Assembly (NCBI GenBank): GCA_038236005.1
Contig: JBBSTI010000002.1
Coordinates: 1-58,676, forward strand
DNA: 58,676 bases
From: Mycobacteriales bacterium
GTDB taxonomy: Bacteria > Actinomycetota > Actinomycetes > Mycobacteriales > SCTD01
Direction: 5' to 3'
The notes beneath the pieces are model-generated. The model had not been told where the DNA came from, ran no database searches, and saw nothing but the letters and a program-made list of their open reading frames with translations. The translations under genes and the position numbers were made by a program. Positions 1,567 to 55,031 of the stretch are shown here, one piece after another (the stretch's first letter is position 1; every line of letters starts with the position of its first letter).

Positions 1567-3063
1567 TTGGACGCCCAGCTCAACCTGTCCATCCTCGTGG
1601 GCTGTCTCGTCCTGCTCGTCGCCGTGCTTGCCGTCCGGGTCTCCCGGCGCACCGGTCTGCCGGTCCTGCTGCTCTACCTCGCGATCGGGCTCGCGGTGGG
1701 CAGCGGCGGGCTGGGCGTCGACTTCCAGGACTATGGGCTCACCGCTGACCTTGGGCTGCTCGCCCTCGCCCTGATCCTGGCCGAGGGTGGGCTGACGACC
1801 CGGTGGGCTGCCGTCCGCCCGGTGCTCCCGTTCGCCGGGGTGCTCGCCACTCTGGGGGTGGCGATCTCGGTCGGCGTCGTGACCGGGGTGACGCTGCTGC
1901 TGCTCGACGTGGACCTGCGGACCGCGGTCATCCTCGGGAGCATCGTCTCCTCGACCGACGCGGCGGCAGTCTTCTCGGTGCTGCGCAAGCTGCAGCTGAG
2001 CGAGCGTGTCAAGAGTGCCCTGGAGGTCGAGTCGGGGCTCAACGACGCCCCCGTGGTCGTGCTGGTCGTGCTGGCCAGCTCGGACGCGTGGGGCGAGGAC
2101 AGCCTGGCCCTGATCGCGTTCGAGATCCTGTCCGAGCTGGCGCTCGGCGCCGGGGTCGGGCTGCTGGTCGGGTGGCTCGGGATGCAGCTGCTCGGGAGGG
2201 CGGCGCTCGGCACGGCCGGGCTCTATCCGCTCGCGACCGTCGGGCTGGCCGTGCTCGCCTACAGCACGGCCAATGCCGTGCACGGCAGCGGCTTCCTGGC
2301 GGTCTACCTCGCCGGGCTCGTGCTCGGGAACTCCCACCTGCCGCACCGTCGGGCCGTGATCGGCTTCGCCAGCTCGGTCGCGCTGCTCGCCGAGGCAGGG
2401 TTGTTCGTCCTGCTCGGGCTGCTGGTCGCCCCGGGTCGGCTGACCGGCGCGTTGCTGGACGCGCTGGTGGTCGGTGCGGCCGCCACCTTCCTGGCCCGGC
2501 CGCTCGCGGTCGCCGTCTCGGCCCTCGCGTTCCGCGGCAGCGCTCAGCGGTGGCGCTGGCGGGAGCAGGTGTTCGTGTCCTGGGCCGGGCTGCGGGGAGC
2601 CGTGCCGATCGTGGTGGCGACCGTCCCGGTCACCCAGGGCGTGCCGGGAGGAGCGCGCGTGCTGGACGTGGTGTTCGTGCTCGTCGTCGTCTACACGCTC
2701 ATCCAGGCGCCCACGCTGCCGTTCCTGGGCCGGCGGCTCGGTCTCGTCGACACCTCCACGCCCTTCGACCTGGAGGTCGAGGCGGCCCCGCTGGAGGAGA
2801 TGGACGCGGACCTGCTCCAGCTGTCGGTGCCGCTCGGGTCCCACCTGGCCGGGGTGTACGTCACCGAGCTCCGGCTGCCCCCGGGCGCGCACATCACCCT
2901 GATCGTGCGCAACGGTTCCTCGCTGGTCCCACGCGGCGAGACCAGGTTGCTGCCCGGCGACCAGCTGCTCGTCGTGGCCGCCGACGGCGTGCGCGACGTC
3001 GCTGAGGCGCGGCTGCGTGCGGTCGCCCGCGGCGGCAAGCTGGCCCGGTGGTACGGAGCATGA
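1567..3063 (+). CDS. K+/H+ (cation/proton) antiporter, CPA1 NhaP2/CvrA type, with a C-terminal TrkA-C-like domain
   Basis: Polytopic hydrophobic N-terminal part with the ESGLNDAP exchanger motif and a soluble C-terminal about 80 aa. The start is TTG in the ORF track. Confidence 0.8.
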   Translation: MDAQLNLSILVGCLVLLVAVLAVRVSRRTGLPVLLLYLAIGLAVGSGGLGVDFQDYGLTADLGLLALALILAEGGLTTRWAAVRPVLPFAGVLATLGVAISVGVVTGVTLLLLDVDLRTAVILGSIVSSTDAAAVFSVLRKLQLSERVKSALEVESGLNDAPVVVLVVLASSDAWGEDSLALIAFEILSELALGAGVGLLVGWLGMQLLGRAALGTAGLYPLATVGLAVLAYSTANAVHGSGFLAVYLAGLVLGNSHLPHRRAVIGFASSVALLAEAGLFVLLGLLVAPGRLTGALLDALVVGAAATFLARPLAVAVSALAFRGSAQRWRWREQVFVSWAGLRGAVPIVVATVPVTQGVPGGARVLDVVFVLVVVYTLIQAPTLPFLGRRLGLVDTSTPFDLEVEAAPLEEMDADLLQLSVPLGSHLAGVYVTELRLPPGAHITLIVRNGSSLVPRGETRLLPGDQLLVVAADGVRDVAEARLRAVARGGKLARWYGA

Positions 3064-3069
3064 GGGGGC

Positions 3070-3726
3070 TCAGCTGCCGCAGGTCCGCGGGCAGGTGAGC
3101 AGCACGCGGAGCCCGGCAGGCAGCTCGGACAGCGCGGTCACCGAGCCGGGGAAGGCCAGCCGGGCGTCGGTGACCCCGTCCTCGGTGACGACCGACACGC
3201 GCAGGCCGAACCGGTCGAGCGAGACCGGTTCGACGAACAGGGCCCACGGGTCCAGCTGCGAGCGCACGCAGGCCAGCAGGGCGTCGGCGTGCGTCTGGCG
3301 TACGTGACGCACGAGCTCGTCGGACAGCGGTGCCAGCGGGTCCGGCTGCGCGGCGCGATAGTCCGACAGGGCGACCGGCAGCGGGGACCCGCCCAGCTTG
3401 ATCGACACCGGGTCGACGCGGAACCTCAGCCGACCCTCCGGGTCGCGCCCGGGCAGCCGCCTCGACCCGCCGGCCAGGATCGTGGCCGGGTGCCCGGCAG
3501 CGGCGACCGTGAGCGTCGCGAGCGGTCGGCGGAACAGGTCCACCGCGGCCTGGCTCCCGTACCGCAGCGAGACCTGCACCCCGCCGTCACCCAGGTCGTG
3601 CACGGACACCAGCGTCGTCCGCACCGGAGCGGCCCCTCCGCAGGAGGCGCGCCCGTAGGTGTGCAGGGTCCCCACCCGCGACACCGACACCGCGGTCCGG
3701 GCCCGCTCGGCGGCAGAAGGTTCCAT
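3070..3726 (-). CDS. DUF2470-containing, HugZ-like (PNPOx-like split barrel) putative heme-utilisation protein
   Basis: 218-aa ORF with high GC3. The family is recognised from overall sequence only. An iron-box-like site lies directly upstream. Confidence 0.5.
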   Translation of the reverse strand: MEPSAAERARTAVSVSRVGTLHTYGRASCGGAAPVRTTLVSVHDLGDGGVQVSLRYGSQAAVDLFRRPLATLTVAAAGHPATILAGGSRRLPGRDPEGRLRFRVDPVSIKLGGSPLPVALSDYRAAQPDPLAPLSDELVRHVRQTHADALLACVRSQLDPWALFVEPVSLDRFGLRVSVVTEDGVTDARLAFPGSVTALSELPAGLRVLLTCPRTCGS

Positions 3727-6022: not shown

Positions 6023-6730
6023 ATGAGCGACCGTCGGGACCTTGGTGTCCCGGCGGTCGTCGTGCTGTGGGTCCCGGCCGTGCTGGGCCTCGACACCGGG
6101 GCGTCGCACCTGCAGCAAGCCTTGTTGGGTGTCGGCACCTGGGTGCTCCTGGGCGTGCTGCTGCTCGGCGAACGACTCGCCACCCGGGTGCAGGTCGGTG
6201 TGGTCGTGGTTTTCGCGACGATGATCGAATACGTCTTCAGCGACTGGCTGCACACCTACGTCTACCGGCTGGACAACGTGCCGGCTTTCGTGCCGCCCGG
6301 TCACGGGTTGGTCTACCTCGCGGCGCTCTGCATCGGACGCTCGGCGTTCGCGCACCGCCGCGGAAAAGCCCTGCTGACCGTCGTCCTGGTGGGTCTGGGT
6401 CTGTGGTCGCTCTGGGGGGTCACCTTCGCCGAACGCCCGGACGTGCTCGGGATGTTCTGGTTCCTCTGCCTTCTCGCGTTCGTGCGCTGGGGGCAGAGCC
6501 CGCTGCTCTACCTGGGGGCTGCGCTCGTCGTGACCTATCTCGAGCTGATCGGGACCGGGCTCGGCACCTGGGCCTGGGGCGCGTATGACCCGGTGCTCGG
6601 GGTGATCAGCATGGGCAACCCGCCGAGCGGTGTCGCCGGCGGCTACGGCTTCTTCGACGCCGCTGCCCTCGTTCTGACGCCCAGGCTGCTCGGACGACAG
6701 ATGGACCTGGCGGCCCCCGAACGTCCGTGA
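6023..6730 (+). CDS. Hypothetical polytopic membrane protein
   Basis: 235-aa ORF with about 6 hydrophobic helices and high GC3. No family recognised. Confidence 0.55.
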   Translation: MSDRRDLGVPAVVVLWVPAVLGLDTGASHLQQALLGVGTWVLLGVLLLGERLATRVQVGVVVVFATMIEYVFSDWLHTYVYRLDNVPAFVPPGHGLVYLAALCIGRSAFAHRRGKALLTVVLVGLGLWSLWGVTFAERPDVLGMFWFLCLLAFVRWGQSPLLYLGAALVVTYLELIGTGLGTWAWGAYDPVLGVISMGNPPSGVAGGYGFFDAAALVLTPRLLGRQMDLAAPERP

Positions 6731-6825
6731 TCATGATCATCTGCACCCTCGGTGACCGTTCTGGGGGTGCAGACGGCCATGATCACCGGAAAGGGAACCG
6801 GCCGACGACCGGCCGACGACCGGTC
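6728..6825. repeat. Structured intergenic block holding a 12-bp palindrome, a hairpin flanked by ATGATCA direct repeats, and an 11-bp tandem repeat
   Basis: TGATCATGATCA at 6728-6739. A 9-bp stem pairs tctgcaccc (6740-6748) with gggtgcaga (6765-6773). ATGATCA recurs at 6779-6785. ccggccgacga occurs about 2.5 times at 6798-6825. Confidence 0.7.
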
Positions 6826-7147
6826 ACGAGCGGCGCGTCAGCTCGGTGTCGACGGCCGCCAGGTCGTCGCGCAGCGCGGCCGCCCGCTCGAAGTCCAGCT
6901 CGTGGCTGGCCCGTCCCATCGCCGCGACCAGCCGCTCCCGTTGCGTCATGAGCTGGGTGACGGTCCGCTGGGCCAGCTGCACCGCAGCGGTCTCGACGTA
7001 GGCCGAACCGTTCTCGTCGAGCATCGGCTGGCGGTCCGGAGCCGCTCCGATGTGGTGGTGACGCCCGGTCTCCGGTGCCCGGTAGATGCCGCTGCGCCGG
7101 CGGACCAGGTCACGGGCCCGCCCGGAGGAGGGTGGCAGCTCGGTCAC
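6824..7147 (-). CDS. UVR (UvrB/UvrC motif) domain-containing small protein
   Basis: The C-terminus [18 protein letters not shown] is a UVR motif. Its GTG start overlaps the hisN stop (GTGA). GC3 is high from 7147 down. Confidence 0.6.
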
Positions 7148-7977
7148 GGTTGGAGGCCGGTCGTTCGGGGTCCAGGATCGAGACCGTCGAGCAGCGCCGG
7201 GTGCAGCAGCCCGTTGCTGCAGACCACGCTGCCGCCGTCCGGGCCCGTACGGCCGGCAAGGTCGGTGAACCTGCCGCCAGCCTCGGTCACGATGGGCTCC
7301 AGCGCAGCGAGGTCCCACACGCTCACCTCCGGCTCGAAGGATCCGTCGACCGCCCCCTCGGCGACGAGCACGTGGCTCCAGAAGTCACCGAAGGCGCGGG
7401 TGCGCCAGACCTGTTCGGACAGCACCAGCAGCCCGTCGAGCCGCCCCTGCTGCTGCCAGCCGGTCAGGGAGCTGTAGGCAAGGCTCGCGTCCGACAGCGA
7501 CGCCACCCCGCTCACCGACAGCTGCGTCCCGTCGCCCGGCCCGGTCCCCGCCCACGCCCCGTGGCCGAGCGCCGCCCACCAGCGGCGACCGAGCGCGGGA
7601 GCGCTCACCACCCCGACCTGCGTCCGTCCACCGATCTGCAGCGCGATCAGGGTCGCCCACACCGGCACGCCTCGTACGAAGTTCTTGGTGCCGTCGATCG
7701 GGTCGATCACCCAGCGCCTCGGGCCGTCGCCGATCAGGCCTGCCTCCTCCCCGAGAACGGCGTCTCCGGGGCGGTGCTCGGCGATCAGCGTCCGCAGCAG
7801 CGTCTCGACCGCGGTGTCCGCGTCGCTGACCGGGGTCAGGTCCGGCTTGCTGTCCACCCGCAGGTCGCCCGCCCGGAACCGGGCCGTCGTGATCGCGTCG
7901 GCGGCGTCGGCCAGCACATGGGCCAGGGCCAGATCCGCACCGGCAGCGTCGTTGTCCTGGTCAGGGGGCACGGTCAC
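7144..7977 (-). CDS. hisN: Histidinol-phosphatase, inositol-monophosphatase family
   Basis: IMPase signature [25 protein letters not shown] and [13 protein letters not shown]. Confidence 0.75.
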
Positions 7978-8018
7978 GACCCTAAGGTGAGCGGCATGGT
8001 GCCGACCGTGCAGCGCGC

Positions 8019-8231
8019 ATGACCCGCGACGAGGTCGTCGCCGTTCTCGTCGAGAAGATGCCGACAGAGGACCCGGACCTGGAAGCGGCGTTCCCCGGTG
8101 ACTCGCTGGCCTTCATCGAGCTCGTGATGGACCTCGAGGACGCGCTCGGCGTCGAGCTGGACGAGCAGCAGGTCAGTCAGACGCAGACGCTGGAAGACCT
8201 GGTGCTGCTCTGCTTAGCCGCGGCGGCCTGA
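8019..8231 (+). CDS. Stand-alone acyl/peptidyl carrier protein-like ORF (70 aa)
   Basis: [19 protein letters not shown] resembles the phosphopantetheine attachment motif (DSL). The protein is acidic and GC3 is high. Confidence 0.6.
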
Positions 8232-8798
8232 GGCTCTCAGCAGCACGACCGCGCCGGTCACCGACCACAGGTCGAACAGGGTGAGCCCACTGCGCTGGAA
8301 CAGCCCGGTCAGGTCATCGAAGGACACGCTCGCCACCAGGCACGCGGCCATCGCGGCCGACAGCGCGTAGGACGCCTTGCGCGCCGCAGGCGACCGCAGG
8401 TGCCGGGCCACCACGATCGGGGCGATCACATTCGCGAGGTAGGCCGTGCCGGCCGCGACGGTGTGCCAGGTGTCGATGCGCTGGTCTCCCTCGGCAGACA
8501 GCGGCAGGGCGGCGACCGCGAGGGTCCCGAGCGCCGTGACCGTGACCGCCACGTGCGCGCTCCGGGAGCAGAGCGCGACCCCGAGCTCGCGCGCGTAGAA
8601 CGGCATGGCGAGGCCGAAGACGACGAAGCCCGTGGTCATCAGCGGCTGCGTGGAGGTGCCCTGCTCGGCGAGCCGACTGATCGCGTCCGAGACGGGGGAG
8701 TAGCCGTCGTCGCGCAGCAGGCCCCCGGTCACCCATGCCCCGACGAAGGCCGCCGGCCCGACGATCCCGGTGAGCGTGGCTGCGCGGCGTCTGATCAC
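8214..8798 (-). CDS. DUF998-like membrane protein
   Basis: 194 aa with about 6 TM helices. The family call rests on overall similarity only. Confidence 0.55.
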   Translation of the reverse strand: MIRRRAATLTGIVGPAAFVGAWVTGGLLRDDGYSPVSDAISRLAEQGTSTQPLMTTGFVVFGLAMPFYARELGVALCSRSAHVAVTVTALGTLAVAALPLSAEGDQRIDTWHTVAAGTAYLANVIAPIVVARHLRSPAARKASYALSAAMAACLVASVSFDDLTGLFQRSGLTLFDLWSVTGAVVLLRASGRRG

Positions 8799-48843: not shown

Positions 48844-49635
48844 GTGGTCCTGCCGGTCCGGGACACCAACCCCCGCCGCCGTACGCCGGTCGTGACGTAC
48901 GCCTTGATCGTCGTGAACGTCGTCGTCTTCCTGGTCGGCCCGATCGCGACCCACGTGCTGTCCAGCGGCAGCGCGGCGGCGCAGTGCTCGCAGCTGGCCT
49001 ACCTCCAGGAGTACGCGGCGATCCCCGACGAGCTGATCGGCAACGACCCGGCACGGGTGGTCGCGACCGGACAGGCTGCCCCGGAGGGTTGTGTCGCTGG
49101 CCCGCCGGACTACGACAAACGTCCGTGGCTGTCCGTGCTGACCGCGATGTTCCTGCACGGGGGGTGGTTGCATCTGGCCCGCAACATGCTCTTCCTCTCT
49201 GTCTTCGGCGACAACATCGAAGACCGGCTCGGCCGGGTGCGGTACCTGATCTTCTATCTGGTCTGCGGTTATGCTGCGACGTACGGCTTCGCGCTCGCGG
49301 ATCCCGGCAGCTCTACCCCGCTGGTCGGGGCGTCCGGGGCCATCGCTGGCGTGCTCGGCGGATACCTCGTGCTGTATCCGCGGGCTAAGGTGTGGTCGCT
49401 GCTGACCTTCTTCTTCTTCCTGCCGGTGCGTCTCCCCGCCTGGCTCGTGCTGGCGAGCTGGTTCCTGCTGCAGCTGGCCTACTCGACCGGCGCCGGTCTG
49501 ACCGACGCGGGCGGCGGGGTGGCCTATCTCGCGCACGTCCTGGGCTTCGCGCTCGGTGCCCTGCTGTGTTACCGCCTCCGCGGTACCGGTCGGGACCGGC
49601 GCATCGCGAGGCCCCGCTACGGAAGGTTTGCATGA
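48844..49635 (+). CDS. Rhomboid-family intramembrane serine protease
   Basis: HxxxN (HLARN) and GASGAIAG motifs. Confidence 0.85.
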   Translation: MVLPVRDTNPRRRTPVVTYALIVVNVVVFLVGPIATHVLSSGSAAAQCSQLAYLQEYAAIPDELIGNDPARVVATGQAAPEGCVAGPPDYDKRPWLSVLTAMFLHGGWLHLARNMLFLSVFGDNIEDRLGRVRYLIFYLVCGYAATYGFALADPGSSTPLVGASGAIAGVLGGYLVLYPRAKVWSLLTFFFFLPVRLPAWLVLASWFLLQLAYSTGAGLTDAGGGVAYLAHVLGFALGALLCYRLRGTGRDRRIARPRYGRFA

Positions 49636-51383
49636 CCAGCCCCACTCAGCACGACACGGAACACCCCTCCACCAGCTTCGACGACCTCGGGCTGCGTCCC
49701 GAGCTCGTCGCACAGCTGCACACCCTCGGGTACGAGGAGCCGACGCCGATCCAGGCCGAGGCGATCGTGCCGCTGCTGGACGGCAAGGACCTGATCGGCC
49801 AGGCTGCCACCGGCACCGGCAAGACGGCCGCCTTCGCGCTGCCGGCGCTCCAGCTGCTCGGCGAGGGCCACCGCGGGTCGCGGCCGGTCGCCCTGGTTCT
49901 CGCACCGACGCGAGAGCTGGCCATGCAGGTCAGCGAGGCCACCCACAAGTACGGTCGACCGCTCGGCGCCCGGGTGCTCCCGGTCTACGGCGGCCAGCCG
50001 ATCGGACGTCAGCTGCGCGAGCTGCAGCGCGGCGTCGACATCGTCGTGGCGACCCCCGGTCGAGCGATCGACCACCTGCAGCGCGGCACGCTGCGGCTGG
50101 ACGATCTCAAGATCGTGGTGCTCGACGAGGCCGACGAGATGCTCGACATGGGCTTCGCTGAGGACATCGAGCAGATCTTGTCCGCGGCGCCGAAGGACCG
50201 GCAGACCGTGATGTTCTCGGCCACCATGCCCCGTGCGGTCGAGAAGATCGCCCAGAAGCACCTGCGCGAGCCCGTACGCATCCAGATCGCCCGCGAGAAG
50301 GTGGCGCCGGGCGAGGGACCGCGGGTGCGCCAGAGCGCCTACATCGTGGCGCGGCCGCACAAGCCGGCCGCGCTCGGTCGCGTGCTCGACGTGGAGTCCC
50401 CGGGTGCGGCGATCGTCTTCTGCCGGACGAGGGAGGAGGTCGACACCCTGACCGAGACGCTCAACGGTCGCGGCTACCGCGCCGAGGCGCTGCACGGCGG
50501 CCTCACCCAGGGCGATCGCGACAAGGTGATGAGCCGGCTTCGCAACCAGACTGCCGACCTGCTCGTGGCGACCGACGTCGCGGCCCGCGGGCTCGACGTC
50601 GACCACCTCACGCACGTCGTGAACTACAGCGTCCCCTCGGCCGCCGAGGCCTACGTCCACCGGATCGGCCGGGTCGGTCGCGCCGGCCGCGAGGGCGTCG
50701 CCATCACGCTGGCCGAGCCCCGCGAGCACCGGATGCTCAAGCAGATCGAGCGGCTCACCGGCCAGCGGATCGCGGTCGAGACCTTGCCGACCGTCGCGGA
50801 CCTGCGGGCCCGTCGGATGGAGCTCACCCGCGCCTCGCTGCGCGAGGTGCTGCTGGCCGGCGAGTTCGAGAGCTTCCGCGGCGTCGTCGAGCAGCTGACC
50901 GACGAGTTCGACGTGATGGACGTGGCGCTCGCCGCGGTCCAGATGGCCCACGAGGCCAGCGGCCCGGACACCGACGAGCAGGAGCTGCCGACCGCGCCGC
51001 CGCCGTCCGCACCCTCGAGCCGGCCGGAGCGGGGCCGTCCGGACCGTCAGGACCGCGGCGGTTCCTCCCACGGATCGTCCCACGGTGGGACGTCACAGGG
51101 CGGGCCGTCCCGCCCGGGCCGGACGCGGGCCAGCAACGCCGAGACCACTCGGCTGTTCATCGGCGCCGGTCGGGTCGGCGGCATCCGGCCGCAGGACCTC
51201 GTCGGGGCGATCGCGGGGGAGTCCGAGCTCACCGGCCGCGACATCGGCGCGATCGAGATCGCTGAGCGCTTCTCGCTCGTCGAGGTGCCGTCCGGTCGCG
51301 CGGACGAGGTCATCGAGGCCCTACGCGGCACCCTGGTCAAGGGCCGCAAGGTCACCGTGCGTCGGGAGAAGTTCGAGCGCTGA
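49632..51383 (+). CDS. deaD: DEAD-box RNA helicase with a DbpA-type C-terminal RNA-binding domain
   Basis: AATGTGKT, DEAD, SAT and HRIGRVGRAG motifs. Its ATG overlaps the rhomboid stop (ATGA). Confidence 0.9.
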   Translation: MTSPTQHDTEHPSTSFDDLGLRPELVAQLHTLGYEEPTPIQAEAIVPLLDGKDLIGQAATGTGKTAAFALPALQLLGEGHRGSRPVALVLAPTRELAMQVSEATHKYGRPLGARVLPVYGGQPIGRQLRELQRGVDIVVATPGRAIDHLQRGTLRLDDLKIVVLDEADEMLDMGFAEDIEQILSAAPKDRQTVMFSATMPRAVEKIAQKHLREPVRIQIAREKVAPGEGPRVRQSAYIVARPHKPAALGRVLDVESPGAAIVFCRTREEVDTLTETLNGRGYRAEALHGGLTQGDRDKVMSRLRNQTADLLVATDVAARGLDVDHLTHVVNYSVPSAAEAYVHRIGRVGRAGREGVAITLAEPREHRMLKQIERLTGQRIAVETLPTVADLRARRMELTRASLREVLLAGEFESFRGVVEQLTDEFDVMDVALAAVQMAHEASGPDTDEQELPTAPPPSAPSSRPERGRPDRQDRGGSSHGSSHGGTSQGGPSRPGRTRASNAETTRLFIGAGRVGGIRPQDLVGAIAGESELTGRDIGAIEIAERFSLVEVPSGRADEVIEALRGTLVKGRKVTVRREKFER

Positions 51384-51533
51384 GAGCGGCGGTCTGCAGC
51401 CGGCGGCCGGCAGGAGCGGGCTGAGCCCGGAGTCGAGGCGTGCCGGGACGGCGGCGAGCCAACCGGCCGGGGCGTGCTGACCCCCGAACGACCTGCGAGC
51501 AACCACCGGAAGGGCGCAGCAGAGGCCGTGCGC

Positions 51534-52175
51534 TCAGACCACGCCGTAGAGGCGGTCGCCGGCATCGCCGAGGCCCGGGTAGATGTAGCCCTTGTCGGTC
51601 AGCCGCTCGTCGACCGCCCCGGTGACGACGGTGACCGGGCAGCCGGCGTCGTCAGCGAACGCGGCGTCGACCACGGCCAGACCCTCCGGCGCGGCAAGCA
51701 GGCAGATCGCGGTCACGTTGGTGGCGCCACGGGCGACCATCAGCTCGATCGTGGCGACCAGGGTGCCGCCGGTCGCCAGCATCGGGTCGAGCACGAACAC
51801 CTCGCGGCCGGAAAGGTCCTCCGGAAGTCTGGTCGCGTAGGCGGTCGCCACCAGCGTCCCCTCGTCGCGGACCATCCCGAGAAAGCCCACCTCGGCGGTC
51901 GGCAGCAGCCGGGTCATCCCGTCGAGCATGCCGAGCCCGGCGCGCAGGACCGGGACGACCAGCGGCATCGGTCGGGACAGCCGCACGCCGGTGGTCGGGG
52001 CGACCGGGGTCGTGACGTCGACCGGCTCGGTGCGGATCTCCCGGGTCGCCTCGTAGGCCAGGAGCGTCACCAGCTCGTCGGCGAGCCGCCGGAAGGTCGG
52101 GGAGTCCGTCGTCTCGTCCCGCAGCGTGGTCAGCTTGTGGGCGACGAGCGGGTGGTCGATGACGAGGGTGCGCAC
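51534..52175 (-). CDS. upp: Uracil phosphoribosyltransferase
   Basis: [15 protein letters not shown] motif and a [13 protein letters not shown]-terminus. The GTG at 52175 is preceded by TACCCT plus 7 nt. Confidence 0.9.
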
Positions 52176-52182
52176 ACCGGCG

Positions 52183-52188
52183 AGGGTA
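52183..52188 (-). promoter_or_regulatory. -10-like TACCCT box 7 nt upstream of the upp GTG (leaderless-type)
   Basis: The minus strand reads TACCCT-cgccggt-GTG. Confidence 0.35.
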
Positions 52189-52243
52189 TCGTCCTCGGTC
52201 ACCGGGCCCCTCGATCGACCGACTCCTCGCTGCGGGCCTCGGG

Positions 52244-52537
52244 TCAGCGGCGGCGCGCGCGGTCGAGCAGCAGCTGGACGACCGGCTCTAACGGTTCGGG
52301 CAGCTCCCGCTCCCCGCAGGTCAGCTCGTAGCGGGTCTCCATGGTCTCGAGCACGAGCTGGTAGGTGAAGCGGTCTGCCTCGCTCGACCCGACGGAGACG
52401 GCGAGCGCGGGCACGTCGACCCCGGTGAGCAGCCCGGAGACCTGCGCCAGCTCGGGGTCGCCGTGCTCGACCTGGGTGGACAGCGTCAGCCCCGCGAACC
52501 CGCCGGTGCGACGGAACTCCAGCCGTTCCAGCCTCAT
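52244..52537 (-). CDS. Emfourin-like protealysin (M4 protease) inhibitor
   Basis: 97 aa starting [17 protein letters not shown].. with DRFTYQL. Its ATG overlaps the protease stop (ATGA). Confidence 0.6.
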
Positions 52538-53550
52538 GCCCTGACGCCGACCTGCGCCCAGGCGTCGGCGACCGCCTGGTGCGTGCCGTAGACCCGGGCC
52601 GAGCGCACGGTCGCCCGTGCGAACGCGCTGAACCGGGTCGTCGGACGCAGCTGTGCGTCCCGGATCGTGTCGTACCAGACCTGCCCCGCTCCCTCCCACG
52701 CGTTGCCGCCGATCGCGGTGGCCGCCAGGTAGAACGCGCGGTTCGGGATCCCGGAGTTGAGGTGCACGCCACCGTTGTCGCGGGTCGTCTCGACGTAGTC
52801 GTCCATCGCTGCCGGCTGCGGGTCCTTGCCGAGCACCGGGTCGTCGTACGCCGTGCCGGGCGCCTTCATCGACCGCAGCGCGACCCCCTGGACGGTCTCG
52901 GTGAACAGCCCCTCGCCGATCAGCCAGTCAGCCTCGGACGCGCTCTGCGCGAGCGCGTGCTGCTTCACCAGCGCACCGAACACGTCCGAGACCGACTCGT
53001 TCAGCGCCCCGCTCTGACCGGAGTAGACCAGCCCGACCTCGTCCTGCGTCATGCCGTGCGCCAGCTCGTGCCCGATCACGTCGACCGCGACGGTGAAGCG
53101 CCGGAACAGCGAGGCGTCGCCGTCGCCGAAGACCATCTGGGCGCCGTCCCAGAACGCGTTGTCGTAGTCCTGCCCGTAATGGACCGTCGCGATCAGCGGC
53201 AGCCCTTCGTCGTCGATGCTGCTGCGACCGTAAGCCTCGCGCAGCAGCGTCCAGGTCGCGCCGAGACCGTCGTAGGCCTCGTCGACGGCCGGGTCGCCGG
53301 TCGCGGCGGCGCCTTCGGCCCGGACCAGCGTGCCGGGCTGGGTCTCGGTCCCGGCGGCCGTGTGGATGCTGCGCTGCAGAACGTCGCTGCGCGGCAGGAG
53401 CGTCGCGCGCGCGGGCGGGGTCTGCAGGCGCACGGTGCGCATCGAGGCGTCCAGCAACAGCGTCGAGAGCGCGCTGTCGGCCGCCGTCGGGTCGGCGTGC
53501 CGGACGACCCGGGCCAGCAGCTCGGGCGGCAGGAAGCAGGAGAGCGTCAT
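52534..53550 (-). CDS. Protealysin-like M4 (thermolysin-family) metallopeptidase without a signal peptide
   Basis: HELAHG zinc motif with the downstream GALNES glutamate. The short propeptide carries a PPL-type motif (FLPPELL). Confidence 0.85.
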
Positions 53551-54119
53551 CGCCACCCACCCTGTGTGCGCAGGGCCGCGGCAACCCGGTCGAAGCGGTC
53601 GCGGGCGAGGATCGCGCCCTCGCGTCGGATGTCGTCCTCGGCCAGCTCGAGGACCCGGTCCAGCCGCACGTACGAAGGGCGGTCCTCGCGGTCCCAGGCA
53701 CCGGGGCCGAGCGCGATCCAGTCGCGCTGACCGTCGCGTCGAGCGTTGGAGGACAGCATCAGGGCGAGCACGTGGTTGCCCTCGCGGCCCACCACCAGCA
53801 CCGGTCGGTCCTTGCCCCGACCGTCCTCCTCCTCGTACGCCACCCAGGTCCAGACCACTTCGCCCGGATCGGCGCGACCGTCCAGGTCGGGGGAGTAGGT
53901 GATCGTGCGCCCGCCAGCCGGAGCGCGTCGGTGCGACGCCCCCGTCCCGTCCGGGCGGTCGCGGGACGTGCCGGCCCTGTCCGAACGGCTCGAGCGCTTC
54001 CCTGCCCCCGTCGGTCGGCCCGAGGGCTTGGGTCCGCCGGTCTGCCCCTGCAGCTGCTGGAGCAGCCTCGGCGCCTCCCGCTGCGCCAACCGTGCCAGCC
54101 GTCCCCAGTTGATCGCCAT
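53547..54119 (-). CDS. PemK/MazF-fold protein with a disordered basic N-terminus
   Basis: PGEVVWTWV..GKDRPVLVV..LALMLSS..RPSYVRLDRV resembles the PemK SH3-like barrel. Its stop overlaps the protease ATG (ATGA). Confidence 0.55.
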   Translation of the reverse strand: MAINWGRLARLAQREAPRLLQQLQGQTGGPKPSGRPTGAGKRSSRSDRAGTSRDRPDGTGASHRRAPAGGRTITYSPDLDGRADPGEVVWTWVAYEEEDGRGKDRPVLVVGREGNHVLALMLSSNARRDGQRDWIALGPGAWDREDRPSYVRLDRVLELAEDDIRREGAILARDRFDRVAAALRTQGGWR

Positions 54120-54188
54120 GGCCTGACCGTACGTGGTGCGCCCCTGACGGGGTAGGGGCGTCAGGTCCGTCCACACGAAGGAGAAAAC

Positions 54189-55031
54189 GTGCCCGTCCCC
54201 ACCGTCACCCTCAACAACGGCGTCCAGGTCCCGCAGCTCGGCTACGGCGTGTTCCAGGTCCCGCCGGAGGAGACCGAGAAGCACGTCAGCGTCGCCCTCG
54301 AGGCCGGCTACCGGCACATCGACACCGCCAAGATCTACGGCAACGAGACCGGGGTCCGCAAGGCGATCGAGAGCTCCGGCATCGCCCGCGACGAGCTGTT
54401 CGTCACGACCAAGCTCTGGAACTCCGACCAGGGCAAGAAGACTGCCGTCCCGGCCTTCGAGAAGAGCTTGTCCAAGCTCGGGCTCGAGAAGCTCGACCTC
54501 TACCTCATCCACTGGCCCGCCCCGGCCAAGGCTGAGTGGATCGACACCTACCTGGCGCTGCAGGACGGGCCCTACGCGAACGGGCAGGTGCGCGCGCTCG
54601 GGGTCTCGAACTTCACCCACGTGCACCTGCGCAAGCTGCTGCTGGCAGCGGACGTGAAGCCGACCGTCAACCAGATCGAGCTGCACCCGCGGTTCCCGCA
54701 GGACGAGGCGCGGGCCTTCCACGCCGAGCACGAGATCGTCACCGAGGCCTGGAGCCCGATCGGTCAGGGCCAGGGACTGCTGGAGGACCCGGTGCTGGCG
54801 ACGATCGGCCGGTCGTACGACAAGAGCCCGGCCCAGGTCGTGCTCCGCTGGCACGTCCAGCTCGGCAACGTCGTCATCCCCAAGTCGGTCACGCCGTCGC
54901 GGATCGCCGACAACATCGACGTCTTCGATTTCGAGCTGTCCACCGACGACATGGCCCAGATCAGCGGGATGTCGGCGACGGACGGCACCGGGCGGCTCGG
55001 TCCCGACCCGGACGACTTCAACATCGAGTAG
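54189..55031 (+). CDS. Aldo/keto reductase (2,5-diketo-D-gluconate reductase-like)
   Basis: GYRHIDTAKIYGNE and LYLIHWP motifs. A strong RBS GAAGGAG is present. Confidence 0.9.
   Translation: MPVPTVTLNNGVQVPQLGYGVFQVPPEETEKHVSVALEAGYRHIDTAKIYGNETGVRKAIESSGIARDELFVTTKLWNSDQGKKTAVPAFEKSLSKLGLEKLDLYLIHWPAPAKAEWIDTYLALQDGPYANGQVRALGVSNFTHVHLRKLLLAADVKPTVNQIELHPRFPQDEARAFHAEHEIVTEAWSPIGQGQGLLEDPVLATIGRSYDKSPAQVVLRWHVQLGNVVIPKSVTPSRIADNIDVFDFELSTDDMAQISGMSATDGTGRLGPDPDDFNIE

Follow-up and report, generated by a model that had tools for sequence, protein, structure and literature searches.

Three co-directional genes on the minus strand of the window (the whole 58,676-nucleotide stretch of Mycobacteriales DNA analyzed here) encode, in gene order, a MazF/PemK-fold protein (g1), a protealysin-like M4 metalloprotease (g2), and an emfourin-family inhibitor (g3). 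Their arrangement probably reflects the landing of a known protease-inhibitor pair beside a resident, stand-alone MazF-like gene in one narrow lineage. The first-pass annotation had instead read the triplet as a regulated PemK/protease/inhibitor module. This proposal is not supported by comparison with other genomes, since g1 is not conserved beside the protease: neither an M4 protease nor an emfourin lies within 8 kb of g1-family genes at any of the 80 best representative loci, a g1-family gene occurs at none of 83 related protease loci, and a syntenic site in the Frankiaceae genome L006 is empty of the pair. Functional coupling of g1 with g2 and g3 is thus improbable, and the comparative data suggest none.

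Organization of the Gene Cluster

The open reading frame map places g1 at 53547..54119 (190 aa), g2 at 52534..53550 (338 aa), and g3 at 52244..52537 (97 aa), and all three proteins pass their Pfam gathering thresholds. The genes are tied by two ATGA stop/start overlaps on the minus strand, which were reported in the first pass and can be read directly in the sequence. The first, at 53547..53550, joins the g1 stop to the g2 start, and the second, at 52534..52537, joins the g2 stop to the g3 start. The g1/g2 overlap, as [A/G]TGA, recurs in each of the four lineage members (the window, L001, L085, and L086). L001 and L087 also have a called 4-nt overlap of the g2/g3 type, and in L090 the protease and emfourin genes abut. 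Elsewhere in the window, a 4-nt overlap occurs in 1 of 20 same-strand neighbor pairs, a rough baseline, as the simple GC3-based gene calling behind it overlooked several genes, those of the target cluster included. At this frequency, the tight packing of g1-g2-g3 is not the local default. Compared with two relatives, the three genes show dN/dS values of 0.17-0.44, which indicates that they are real genes. All three are under purifying selection over a dS of ~0.5; together with the kept g1/g2 overlap, this suggests that the arrangement is stable and that a lineage-specific function could have arisen.

Upstream of the cluster, non-coding sequence is limited to the 69-nt spacer at 54120..54188, between g1 and a divergent aldo/keto reductase gene, which is presumed to hold the promoter. 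A consensus scan of 51300-54400 for promoters and terminators returned nothing, including no sigma-70 match, though this consensus is uninformative for an actinomycete of 73% GC. All matches to the cluster sequence in a public read search came from DNA runs of soil metagenomes, and none came from an RNA run. Co-transcription of g1-g2-g3 is likely, and co-expression of the three genes within the triad lineage is plausible. PADLOC gave no match to any of the three genes at E up to 0.01, and the hypothesis of an anti-phage defense system was dropped on this account.

The Protealysin-Like Protease and Its Putative Inhibitor

The identification of g2 as a protealysin-like M4 protease with a short propeptide of the PPL type, made in the first pass, is borne out by its M4 domains and by a full-length alignment that includes the propeptide. 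g2 matches Peptidase_M4 (2.4e-27, 96.6 bits) and Peptidase_M4_C (3e-51, 174 bits) far above the gathering cut-offs, and its alignment with the protealysin precursor 2VQX (E=1e-116) pairs residues 2-336 of g2 with residues 5-340 of the precursor. The zinc-binding motif HELAH (residues 161-165; 53056-53070, minus strand) and the third zinc-ligand Glu, E185 in GALNES (52996-52998, minus strand), fall opposite the equivalent positions of 2VQX, which reads HALAH at the former. The propeptide motif FLPPELL is encoded at 53515-53535 (minus strand), and in the propeptide region of the alignment a 13-residue stretch of g2 stands opposite VIPPYMLRRIIEH of the protealysin precursor. The N-terminus of g2 therefore appears, from its sequence, to be a short protealysin-type propeptide instead of a signal peptide followed by a long FTP/PepSY propeptide. 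The Pfam protealysin propeptide family (PF16485) is not reported for g2 at E up to 1; it is present in many g2 homologs of 60-65% identity. Identity to g2 is 85-88% within the triad lineage and at most 70% elsewhere, among homologs that span several phyla.

The product of g3 was likewise taken for an emfourin-like inhibitor, and profile comparisons support this assignment. g3 matches Pfam Emfourin (PF20242) at 6.2e-10 and 39.8 bits (gathering cut-off 27), and the profile of the g3 lineage matches PDB 6ZYG, ‘Protealysin-associated protein’ (E=7e-13). A word-seeded search with g3 gave just five lineage sequences, and the distant emfourins were gathered from open reading frames downstream of related proteases, of which 42 are recruited by an iterative HMM started from the g3 of the window lineage. 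Direct search of PDB sequences with g3 returned nothing. The AlphaFold model of g3, built from five sequences, has a pLDDT of 85; Foldseek against the PDB matched it to nothing below E=0.04, and 6ZYG was not among the hits. Membership of g3 in the emfourin family is thus settled by profile search and not by Foldseek.

An emfourin gene is present at 64 of 83 related protease loci; counted over 75 such loci, 64 (85%) carry it next to the protease gene, in the position of g3. The protease and emfourin genes also occur together in unrelated contexts in L087, L088, and L090. This frequency, the unrelated contexts, and the spread of homologs of 60-65% identity across phyla fit a view of emfourin as akin to an immunity protein for a cytoplasmic protease that could be toxic to its own cell.

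The Solitary MazF/PemK-Fold Protein

The first-pass description of g1 as a PemK/MazF fold with a disordered N-terminus agrees with both its Pfam match and its predicted structure. Residues 85-185 match PemK_toxin (1.3e-11, 45.1 bits, gathering cut-off 23.1). In the AlphaFold model, residues 1-74 (53898-54119, minus strand) form a basic helix of low confidence and then a disordered Gly/Arg/Ser/Pro linker of 45 residues, while residues 75-190 (53550-53897, minus strand) form a MazF-like barrel with a core pLDDT >90. Foldseek matches this core to MazF-mt3, Bacillus subtilis MazF, and Staphylococcus aureus MazF with a probability of 1.0 and TM scores of 0.68-0.77. At the sequence level, no solved MazF was matched by PDB phmmer with g1 or by a profile search with the g1 family, and hhalign of the family against B. 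subtilis MazF aligned just 15 columns. Against the B. subtilis MazF sequence, the invariant R105 of g1 aligns to Arg25, with GKDRPVLVV of g1 opposite the GGVRPVLVI that surrounds the catalytic Arg in MazF. S123 and S124, each at least 90% conserved in the family, sit at the end of strand 3 of the predicted structure. They may occupy the place of Thr48 in MazF, an equivalence taken from topology and not from a structural alignment.

The absence of a visible antitoxin beside g1, also noted in the first pass, holds as well. The upstream spacer is divergent and just 69 nt long, so it leaves no room for an antitoxin-sized open reading frame 5′ of g1. This solitary state is shared by a large actinomycete family of antitoxin-less MazF-like proteins to which g1 belongs, with >6,800 homologs, 820 clusters at 50% identity, and members in at least 592 actinomycete species by genome scan. 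Identity of g1 to members from Mycobacterium, Rhodococcus, Micromonospora, and Pseudonocardia is 45-57% over the full length and 65-75% in the core, and core identity across orders lies in the same 65-75% range. Hundreds of species without the protease carry the same N-terminal extension and invariant core residues, and nothing in g1 thus looks adapted to the protease. At 29 Mycobacteriales loci, the family gene is fixed beside lepA. No conserved small neighbor that could serve as an antitoxin was found at the loci examined from Rhodococcus, Mycobacterium, Micromonospora, Actinoplanes, Pseudonocardia, and Frankiales. A Phd/YefM-like open reading frame was considered as a family-wide antitoxin and rejected, as in Pseudonocardia L035 it lies directly 3′ of the family gene but in L063 it is 2 kb away and on the other side.

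Mycobacterium tuberculosis Rv2405 is listed as an orphan PemK toxin, ‘T’, in TASmania (PMC6504116). This entry, together with synteny (the gene order in L066 is lepA, PemK-like gene, CBS protein, and RNase Z-like gene), suggests that Rv2405 is a member of the g1 family.

The Syntenic Slot and the Origin of the Triad

The cluster occupies a slot with conserved edges. On the left, the divergent aldo/keto reductase gene (54189..55031, plus strand) is 88% identical to its counterpart in L001 and 80% to that in L006. Downstream on the cluster strand, the next gene is upp, encoding uracil phosphoribosyltransferase (51534..52175, minus strand; tblastn identity 95% to L001 and 85% to L006), which starts 68 nt after g3, or 41 nt after it should translation begin at the GTG at 52202. 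On the right, a DEAD-box RNA helicase gene (49632..51383, plus strand; 95% to L001 and 72% to L006) is convergent with upp. Pfam domains were assigned on orthologs of these genes: Aldo_ket_red on the aldo/keto reductases, UPRTase on the upp products of L001 and L086, and DEAD, Helicase_C, and DbpA on the L001 helicase.

A survey of triad conservation, which the module proposal made decisive, confines the arrangement to one narrow lineage: beyond the window, it is found only in the close relatives L001, L085, and L086, and always in the same slot. L006 has the same flanks, with an aldo/keto reductase gene, a PemK-like gene (1955-2479), upp (2496-3137), and a DEAD helicase gene, and it carries no protease-inhibitor pair. 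Only 16 nt separate the PemK-like stop from the upp start of L006, where the window holds g2 and g3. The pair is also absent around the g1-family genes of L002-L004 and L171-L173. Within the window, GC content is flat at 70-75% with no shift at g2 and g3, insertion scars were not found, repeats flanking the two genes are only at chance level, and no tRNA or Rfam features are present.

These observations point to two units with separate histories. The first is g1, a resident, antitoxin-less MazF/PemK-fold gene between the aldo/keto reductase gene and upp in a Frankiaceae-like lineage, with upp probably its ancestral downstream neighbor. The second is the known protealysin-emfourin bicistron, whose protease is presumably synthesized in the cytoplasm as a zymogen carrying a short propeptide and whose inhibitor, with a start codon that overlaps or abuts the protease gene, would block the active site 1:1, as shown for Serratia. 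The bicistron was probably inserted, in a recent ancestor of this lineage, into the ~16-nt spacer between g1 and upp, with the g2 start codon fused onto the g1 stop. The result would be a g1-g2-g3-upp array, probably read from the g1 promoter, in which the pair appears to have been gained rather than retained and g1 seems to have no functional interaction with it.

Alternative Readings

Findings that weigh against a simple insertion include the g1/g2 overlap kept in four of four members and the purifying selection on all three genes. Both, along with retention of the triad itself, would fit if a lineage-specific three-component module had formed after insertion, with the MazF-like g1 having become a substrate of the protease, for example through N-terminal clipping that switches an RNase-like core under the gate of emfourin. 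The 45-residue disordered linker of g1 and its Arg aligned with the catalytic Arg of MazF suit this scheme, and protealysin is reported to cleave bacterial cytoplasmic proteins at a flexible linker, such as FtsZ (PMC9505478). A literature search found no paper linking protealysin or emfourin with MazF or PemK. Co-occurrence is nil outside the one lineage, the extension and core of g1 are unchanged in the protease-free species, and the site in L006 is empty. Overlapping starts, moreover, are a frequent by-product of compact actinomycete operons. A module of this kind is accordingly improbable. Its specific form, in which protease freed from emfourin under stress removes the disordered extension of g1 and thereby unleashes or silences the RNase, is more doubtful still; if it did operate, the extension might be a cis-acting, antitoxin-like element and the locus a protease-triggered, antitoxin-less MazF switch.

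The direction of change can also be reversed. The triad could be ancestral to the Frankiaceae-like clade, with the pair removed from L006 by clean deletion. The recovery of just one empty-site genome and the absence of insertion scars, repeats, or a GC shift around the pair are compatible with this history, under which the association would be somewhat older and still confined to a small clade. It is nevertheless unlikely: the pair is absent from all the other Frankiales and actinomycete relatives of g1 that were examined (L171-L173 and the 80 genome loci), the nearest outside protease relatives, at no more than 70% identity, lie in unrelated contexts, and a single gain requires fewer events than repeated losses. 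Hardly credible, finally, is a conventional type II toxin-antitoxin system in which g1 would be the toxin and the antitoxin was missed or replaced by g2 and g3. PGAP does label homologs ‘type II toxin-antitoxin system PemK/MazF family toxin’, and the MazF fold and conserved Arg are consistent with this label. However, the 69-nt spacer leaves no space for an upstream antitoxin, every clade examined lacks a conserved small neighbor, the family holds a fixed position beside lepA in Mycobacteriales, its core identity across orders is unlike that of mobile toxin-antitoxin toxins, TASmania has Rv2405 as an orphan, and PADLOC gives no match. Local insertion of the pair beside g1 therefore stays the preferred reading.

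Its value is mostly corrective. Tight ATGA-linked triplets invite guilt-by-association, and the comparative data here indicate a local insertion and not a system. Under the insertion reading, the locus is also a clean natural example of a protealysin-emfourin bicistron moving as a self-contained two-gene unit.

Comparison With Known Systems

The protealysin and emfourin genes are described as one operon and their products as a 1:1 complex (PMC9505478, citing Chukhontseva 2021). g2 matches the protease of this operon (pln-m4in of Serratia proteamaculans) over its whole length, propeptide included, and both loci place the protease before the inhibitor on one strand, tightly abutting. Unlike in pln-m4in, no intergenic sequence precedes g2, as its ATG overlaps the stop codon of the unrelated g1. 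The host here is a high-GC soil actinomycete, in contrast to S. proteamaculans, and the 97-aa g3 is short and too diverged for a direct PDB sequence or fold match.

With canonical MazEF/PemIK systems, such as MazF-mt3 (Rv1991c) and B. subtilis MazF/EndoA, g1 has the fold in common. Those systems include an antitoxin gene, whereas g1 has none, and g1 carries a 74-residue N-terminal extension that canonical MazF lacks. The distribution of the g1 family is vertical and core-genome-like, which also sets it apart from the canonical systems. g1 also resembles the solitary PemK-like proteins of the Rv2405 type, which share with it a variable basic N-terminal extension, a MazF-like core, and the lack of an antitoxin neighbor. 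The Rv2405-type gene is divergent from lepA in Mycobacteriales, whereas g1 is divergent from the aldo/keto reductase gene and has the protease pair inserted on its 3′ side. The locus also draws notice to an actinomycete MazF-fold family that lacks antitoxins, is highly conserved and very widespread, adjoins lepA throughout Mycobacteriales, and probably includes Rv2405.

Organization of the g1-g2-g3 Locus

Three ORFs on the minus strand of the window are linked end to end: g1, encoding a MazF/PemK-fold protein of 190 aa (53547-54119), g2, encoding a protealysin-like protease of 338 aa (52534-53550), and g3, encoding an emfourin-family inhibitor of 97 aa (52244-52537). Consecutive genes share ATGA stop/start overlaps, at 53547-53550 (g1/g2) and 52534-52537 (g2/g3). 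The only stretch upstream of g1 is a 69-nt spacer (54120-54188), beyond which an aldo/keto reductase gene is transcribed divergently (54189-55031, plus strand). On the same strand as g3, upp (51534-52175) begins 68 nt past it, or 41 nt if an alternative GTG at 52202 is taken as the upp start, and is convergent with a DEAD-box helicase gene (49632-51383, plus strand). Many long overlapping ORFs can be read in other frames near the cluster (e.g., 53547-54854, minus; 52579-53730, plus); they are artefacts of the kind expected in high-GC DNA. Across the 58.7-kb window, no tRNA genes and no Rfam families at gathering score were detected. A defence-system reading of the three genes was unsupported by PADLOC, and among public reads the sequence occurs only in soil-metagenome DNA runs and in no RNA run.

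Protein Families Encoded at the Locus

Profile searches, which the first-pass annotation had recommended, returned all three Pfam families above curated thresholds. Its three minus-strand ORFs and both overlaps stand, as do its calls of a PemK/MazF-like barrel with a disordered N-terminus, a protealysin-like M4 protease, and an emfourin-like inhibitor.

The g1 product is a MazF-fold protein. It matches PemK_toxin at residues 85-185 (1.3e-11), and its AlphaFold model, built with 99 homologs, has a core (residues 75-190) with pLDDT above 90, preceded by a helix modelled with low confidence (6-27) and then by a disordered linker. With Foldseek, the core retrieved MazF-mt3, B. subtilis MazF/YdcE, S. 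aureus MazF, and E. coli MazF (probability 1.0, TM 0.68-0.77). The motif GKDRPVLVVGR lies opposite GGVRPVLVIQN of B. subtilis MazF, where the invariant R105 presumably faces the catalytic Arg25. Judging from topology, S123 and S124 would lie where strand 3 ends, the position held by the catalytic Thr in MazF. Across 99 sequences the family core has 37 columns without variation, and it is 65-75% identical between orders, a degree of conservation that is unusual for a toxin.

For g2, matches to Peptidase_M4 (2.4e-27) and Peptidase_M4_C (3e-51) are accompanied by an alignment of residues 2 to 336 with 5-340 of the protealysin precursor structure 2VQX (E=1e-116), which extends through the propeptide, where 13 letters of g2 stand opposite VIPPYMLRRIIEH. 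Because this full-length alignment includes the propeptide, and both HELAH and the GALNES Glu are preserved, g2 is assigned as a protealysin-like protease rather than a secreted thermolysin. The g3 product matches Emfourin (6.2e-10; 39.8 bits vs. a cut-off of 27) and gave no match in a direct PDB sequence search. Its AlphaFold model, made from 5 sequences (pLDDT 85), drew no Foldseek hit in the PDB below E=0.04 and none to 6ZYG. An emfourin HMM seeded from the window lineage alone recruited 42 ORFs downstream of related proteases, and the resulting profile matches PDB 6ZYG, "Protealysin-associated protein" (E=7e-13), which we take to be the Serratia emfourin structure.

Conservation of the Protease-Emfourin Pair

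The first-pass annotation had proposed that the three genes form a proteolytic module and had called for a survey of their conservation. Besides the window, the triad occurs only in three nearest relatives, L001 (GCA_038235705), L085, and L086, whose g1 is 63-77% identical and in which the genes occupy the same reductase-to-upp slot every time. In all four members of this lineage, the start codon of g2 overlaps the stop codon of g1 as [A/G]TGA. dN/dS is 0.17-0.44 for the three genes (g1 core, 0.19), and purifying selection acts on all of them within the lineage. In L085, the M4 protease and upp (6486-7813 and 8002-8479) are each called as two genes; since its contig name points to a long-read assembly at 2x, sequencing frameshifts are likelier than pseudogenes.

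Beyond the lineage, no M4 protease or emfourin was detected by tblastn in the best 80 g1-family loci (up to 8 kb on each side), nor beside the g1 homolog of Rhodococcus ruber and three further metagenomic relatives. From the protease side, g2 identity is 85-88% within the lineage and at most 70% outside it, followed by a plateau of 55-65% among homologs in Pseudomonas, Chloroflexi, Alphaproteobacteria, and Frankiaceae. Three long-flanked loci carry protease and emfourin in unrelated contexts without a PemK gene, and a metagenome scan added 80 protease loci, for 83 in total. The emfourin HMM, run in six frames, matched 64 of the 83 (64 of the 75 with at least 300 nt downstream), and Pfam Emfourin, independent of the HMM, matched 42 of 60 ORFs picked downstream of proteases. 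The g1-family HMM matched none of the 83 in six frames, tblastn with g1 none of the 58 with at least 600 nt upstream, and PemK_toxin none of 56 co-directional upstream ORFs, among which no Pfam family recurred. Because emfourin is present in 64/75 loci, a PemK-like gene in 0/83, and the protease in 0/80 g1-family loci, the conserved unit is the two-gene protease-emfourin pair. On this comparison the PemK-like gene is an unrelated resident.

A Frankiaceae MAG (L006) retains the flanks of the window: the reductase (80% identity), a PemK-like gene (1955-2479) whose product is 57% identical to g1, upp (2496-3137; 85%), and the DEAD helicase. Only 16 nt separate the PemK-like stop from the upp start, and the pair is absent. 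With this empty site and the two null surveys, the three-component module is not borne out. That L006 lost the pair, rather than the window lineage gaining it, is unlikely, and even then the association would be restricted to a small clade.

Several side observations concern the pair elsewhere. Protealysin-like proteases that share 60-65% identity with g2 are found in Pseudomonas, Skermanella, Benzoatithermus, Kouleothrix/Roseiflexaceae (Chloroflexi), and Frankiaceae; this flat cross-phylum similarity points to frequent horizontal transfer of the pair. The two genes do not always come in the same order: at three loci an Emfourin-family ORF lies directly upstream of the protease, and in L160 and L163 the match lies just downstream on the opposite strand. 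DUF6438 matched 9 of 61 ORFs downstream of proteases (L094-L170; best E=1.4e-05), beside 43 Emfourin matches. Either these are the same proteins, which would suggest a relationship between the two Pfam families, or DUF6438 marks an alternative partner. Two metagenomic proteins, P0190 (486 aa) and P0216 (510 aa), have M4 domains and Emfourin annotated in one polypeptide, and are either natural fusions or run-together gene calls.

The Solitary g1 Family

Word-seeded searches gave more than 6,800 g1 homologs, and 820 clusters at 50% identity match at E up to 1e-3. Those with names are from Actinomycetes without exception. With one genome scanned per species, the family turned up in at least 592 species, among them members of Rhodococcus, Mycobacterium, Nocardia, Dietzia, Micromonospora, Actinoplanes, Pseudonocardia, and Frankiaceae. 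A conserved "MAxxW...PRLL" helix lies within its variable basic N-terminal extension. The neighbourhood varies by clade. In 29 of 29 Mycobacteriales loci the gene is divergent from lepA, mostly at 80-160 nt and in a few cases up to about 1.1 kb, with rpsT and holA usually a few kb away; in a Frankiales MAG it lies upstream of hrcA-dnaJ, and in the remaining clades examined the neighbours are unrelated. In M. asiaticum, lepA is followed by the PemK-like gene, a CBS-domain protein gene, and an RNase Z-like gene, an order that we take to be that of Rv2404c-Rv2407 in M. tuberculosis. In TASmania, Rv2405 is entered as a 189-aa "conserved protein" that has a PemK_toxin domain and belongs to an orphan "T" pseudo-operon (PMC6504116). 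The g1 family probably includes Rv2405; it is catalogued as orphan and seems functionally uncharacterised.

The family is solitary at every locus examined, in agreement with the earlier remark that g1 has no antitoxin-like partner. An adjacent antitoxin was sought and not found, so g1 falls outside canonical type II toxin-antitoxin pairs; that an antitoxin is hidden is highly improbable. An ORF of ~90 aa that by eye resembles a Phd/YefM-type antitoxin directly follows the PemK-like gene of Pseudonocardia kunmingensis (L035, 8508-8792), and a similar ORF lies about 2 kb upstream in P. aurantiaca (L063, 5483-5755); because the position differs, it is an inconsistent partner. The g1 product probably serves a conserved cellular function by binding or cleaving RNA, and is probably regulated by means other than a cognate antitoxin. 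This solitary Rv2405-type family is the most interesting thing left from the locus.

Proposed Function and Comparison With the Serratia Operon

Lineage-specific co-option of g1, for example through clipping of its linker by the protease, would fit the stable, tight packing of the genes, given that a 4-nt overlap is found in 1 of 20 other same-strand pairs in the window (a crude baseline). It has, however, no positive comparative support: nothing sets g1 of the triad lineage apart from that of hundreds of protease-free species, with which it has its N-terminal helix, linker, and invariant core residues in common. Co-option is thus quite improbable, and co-expression of g1 with the pair is most readily explained by the site at which the pair landed. 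Since the pair lacks a separate intergenic region in the window lineage, it is presumably transcribed from the g1 promoter with upp, and the g2/g3 overlap would favour coupled translation.

By homology with the Serratia proteins, g2 would be synthesized as a zymogen in the cytoplasm, with g3 acting as its stoichiometric inhibitor. According to PMC9505478, which cites Chukhontseva et al. (2021), one Serratia operon encodes protealysin and emfourin, and emfourin binds the protealysin active-site region 1:1. The same paper reports that protealysin cuts both RecA and FtsZ, the latter within its flexible linker, and that emfourin loss leads to lower FtsZ levels and lower culture density (PMC9505478). 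The first-pass annotation held the arrangement to be undescribed; the juxtaposition is real and apparently undescribed, as no paper was found that links protealysin or emfourin with MazF or PemK. The evidence points to a local insertion rather than to a novel type of system. As in the Serratia operon, the protease and inhibitor genes of the window are grouped, and the pair is a new actinomycete member of this known operon type.
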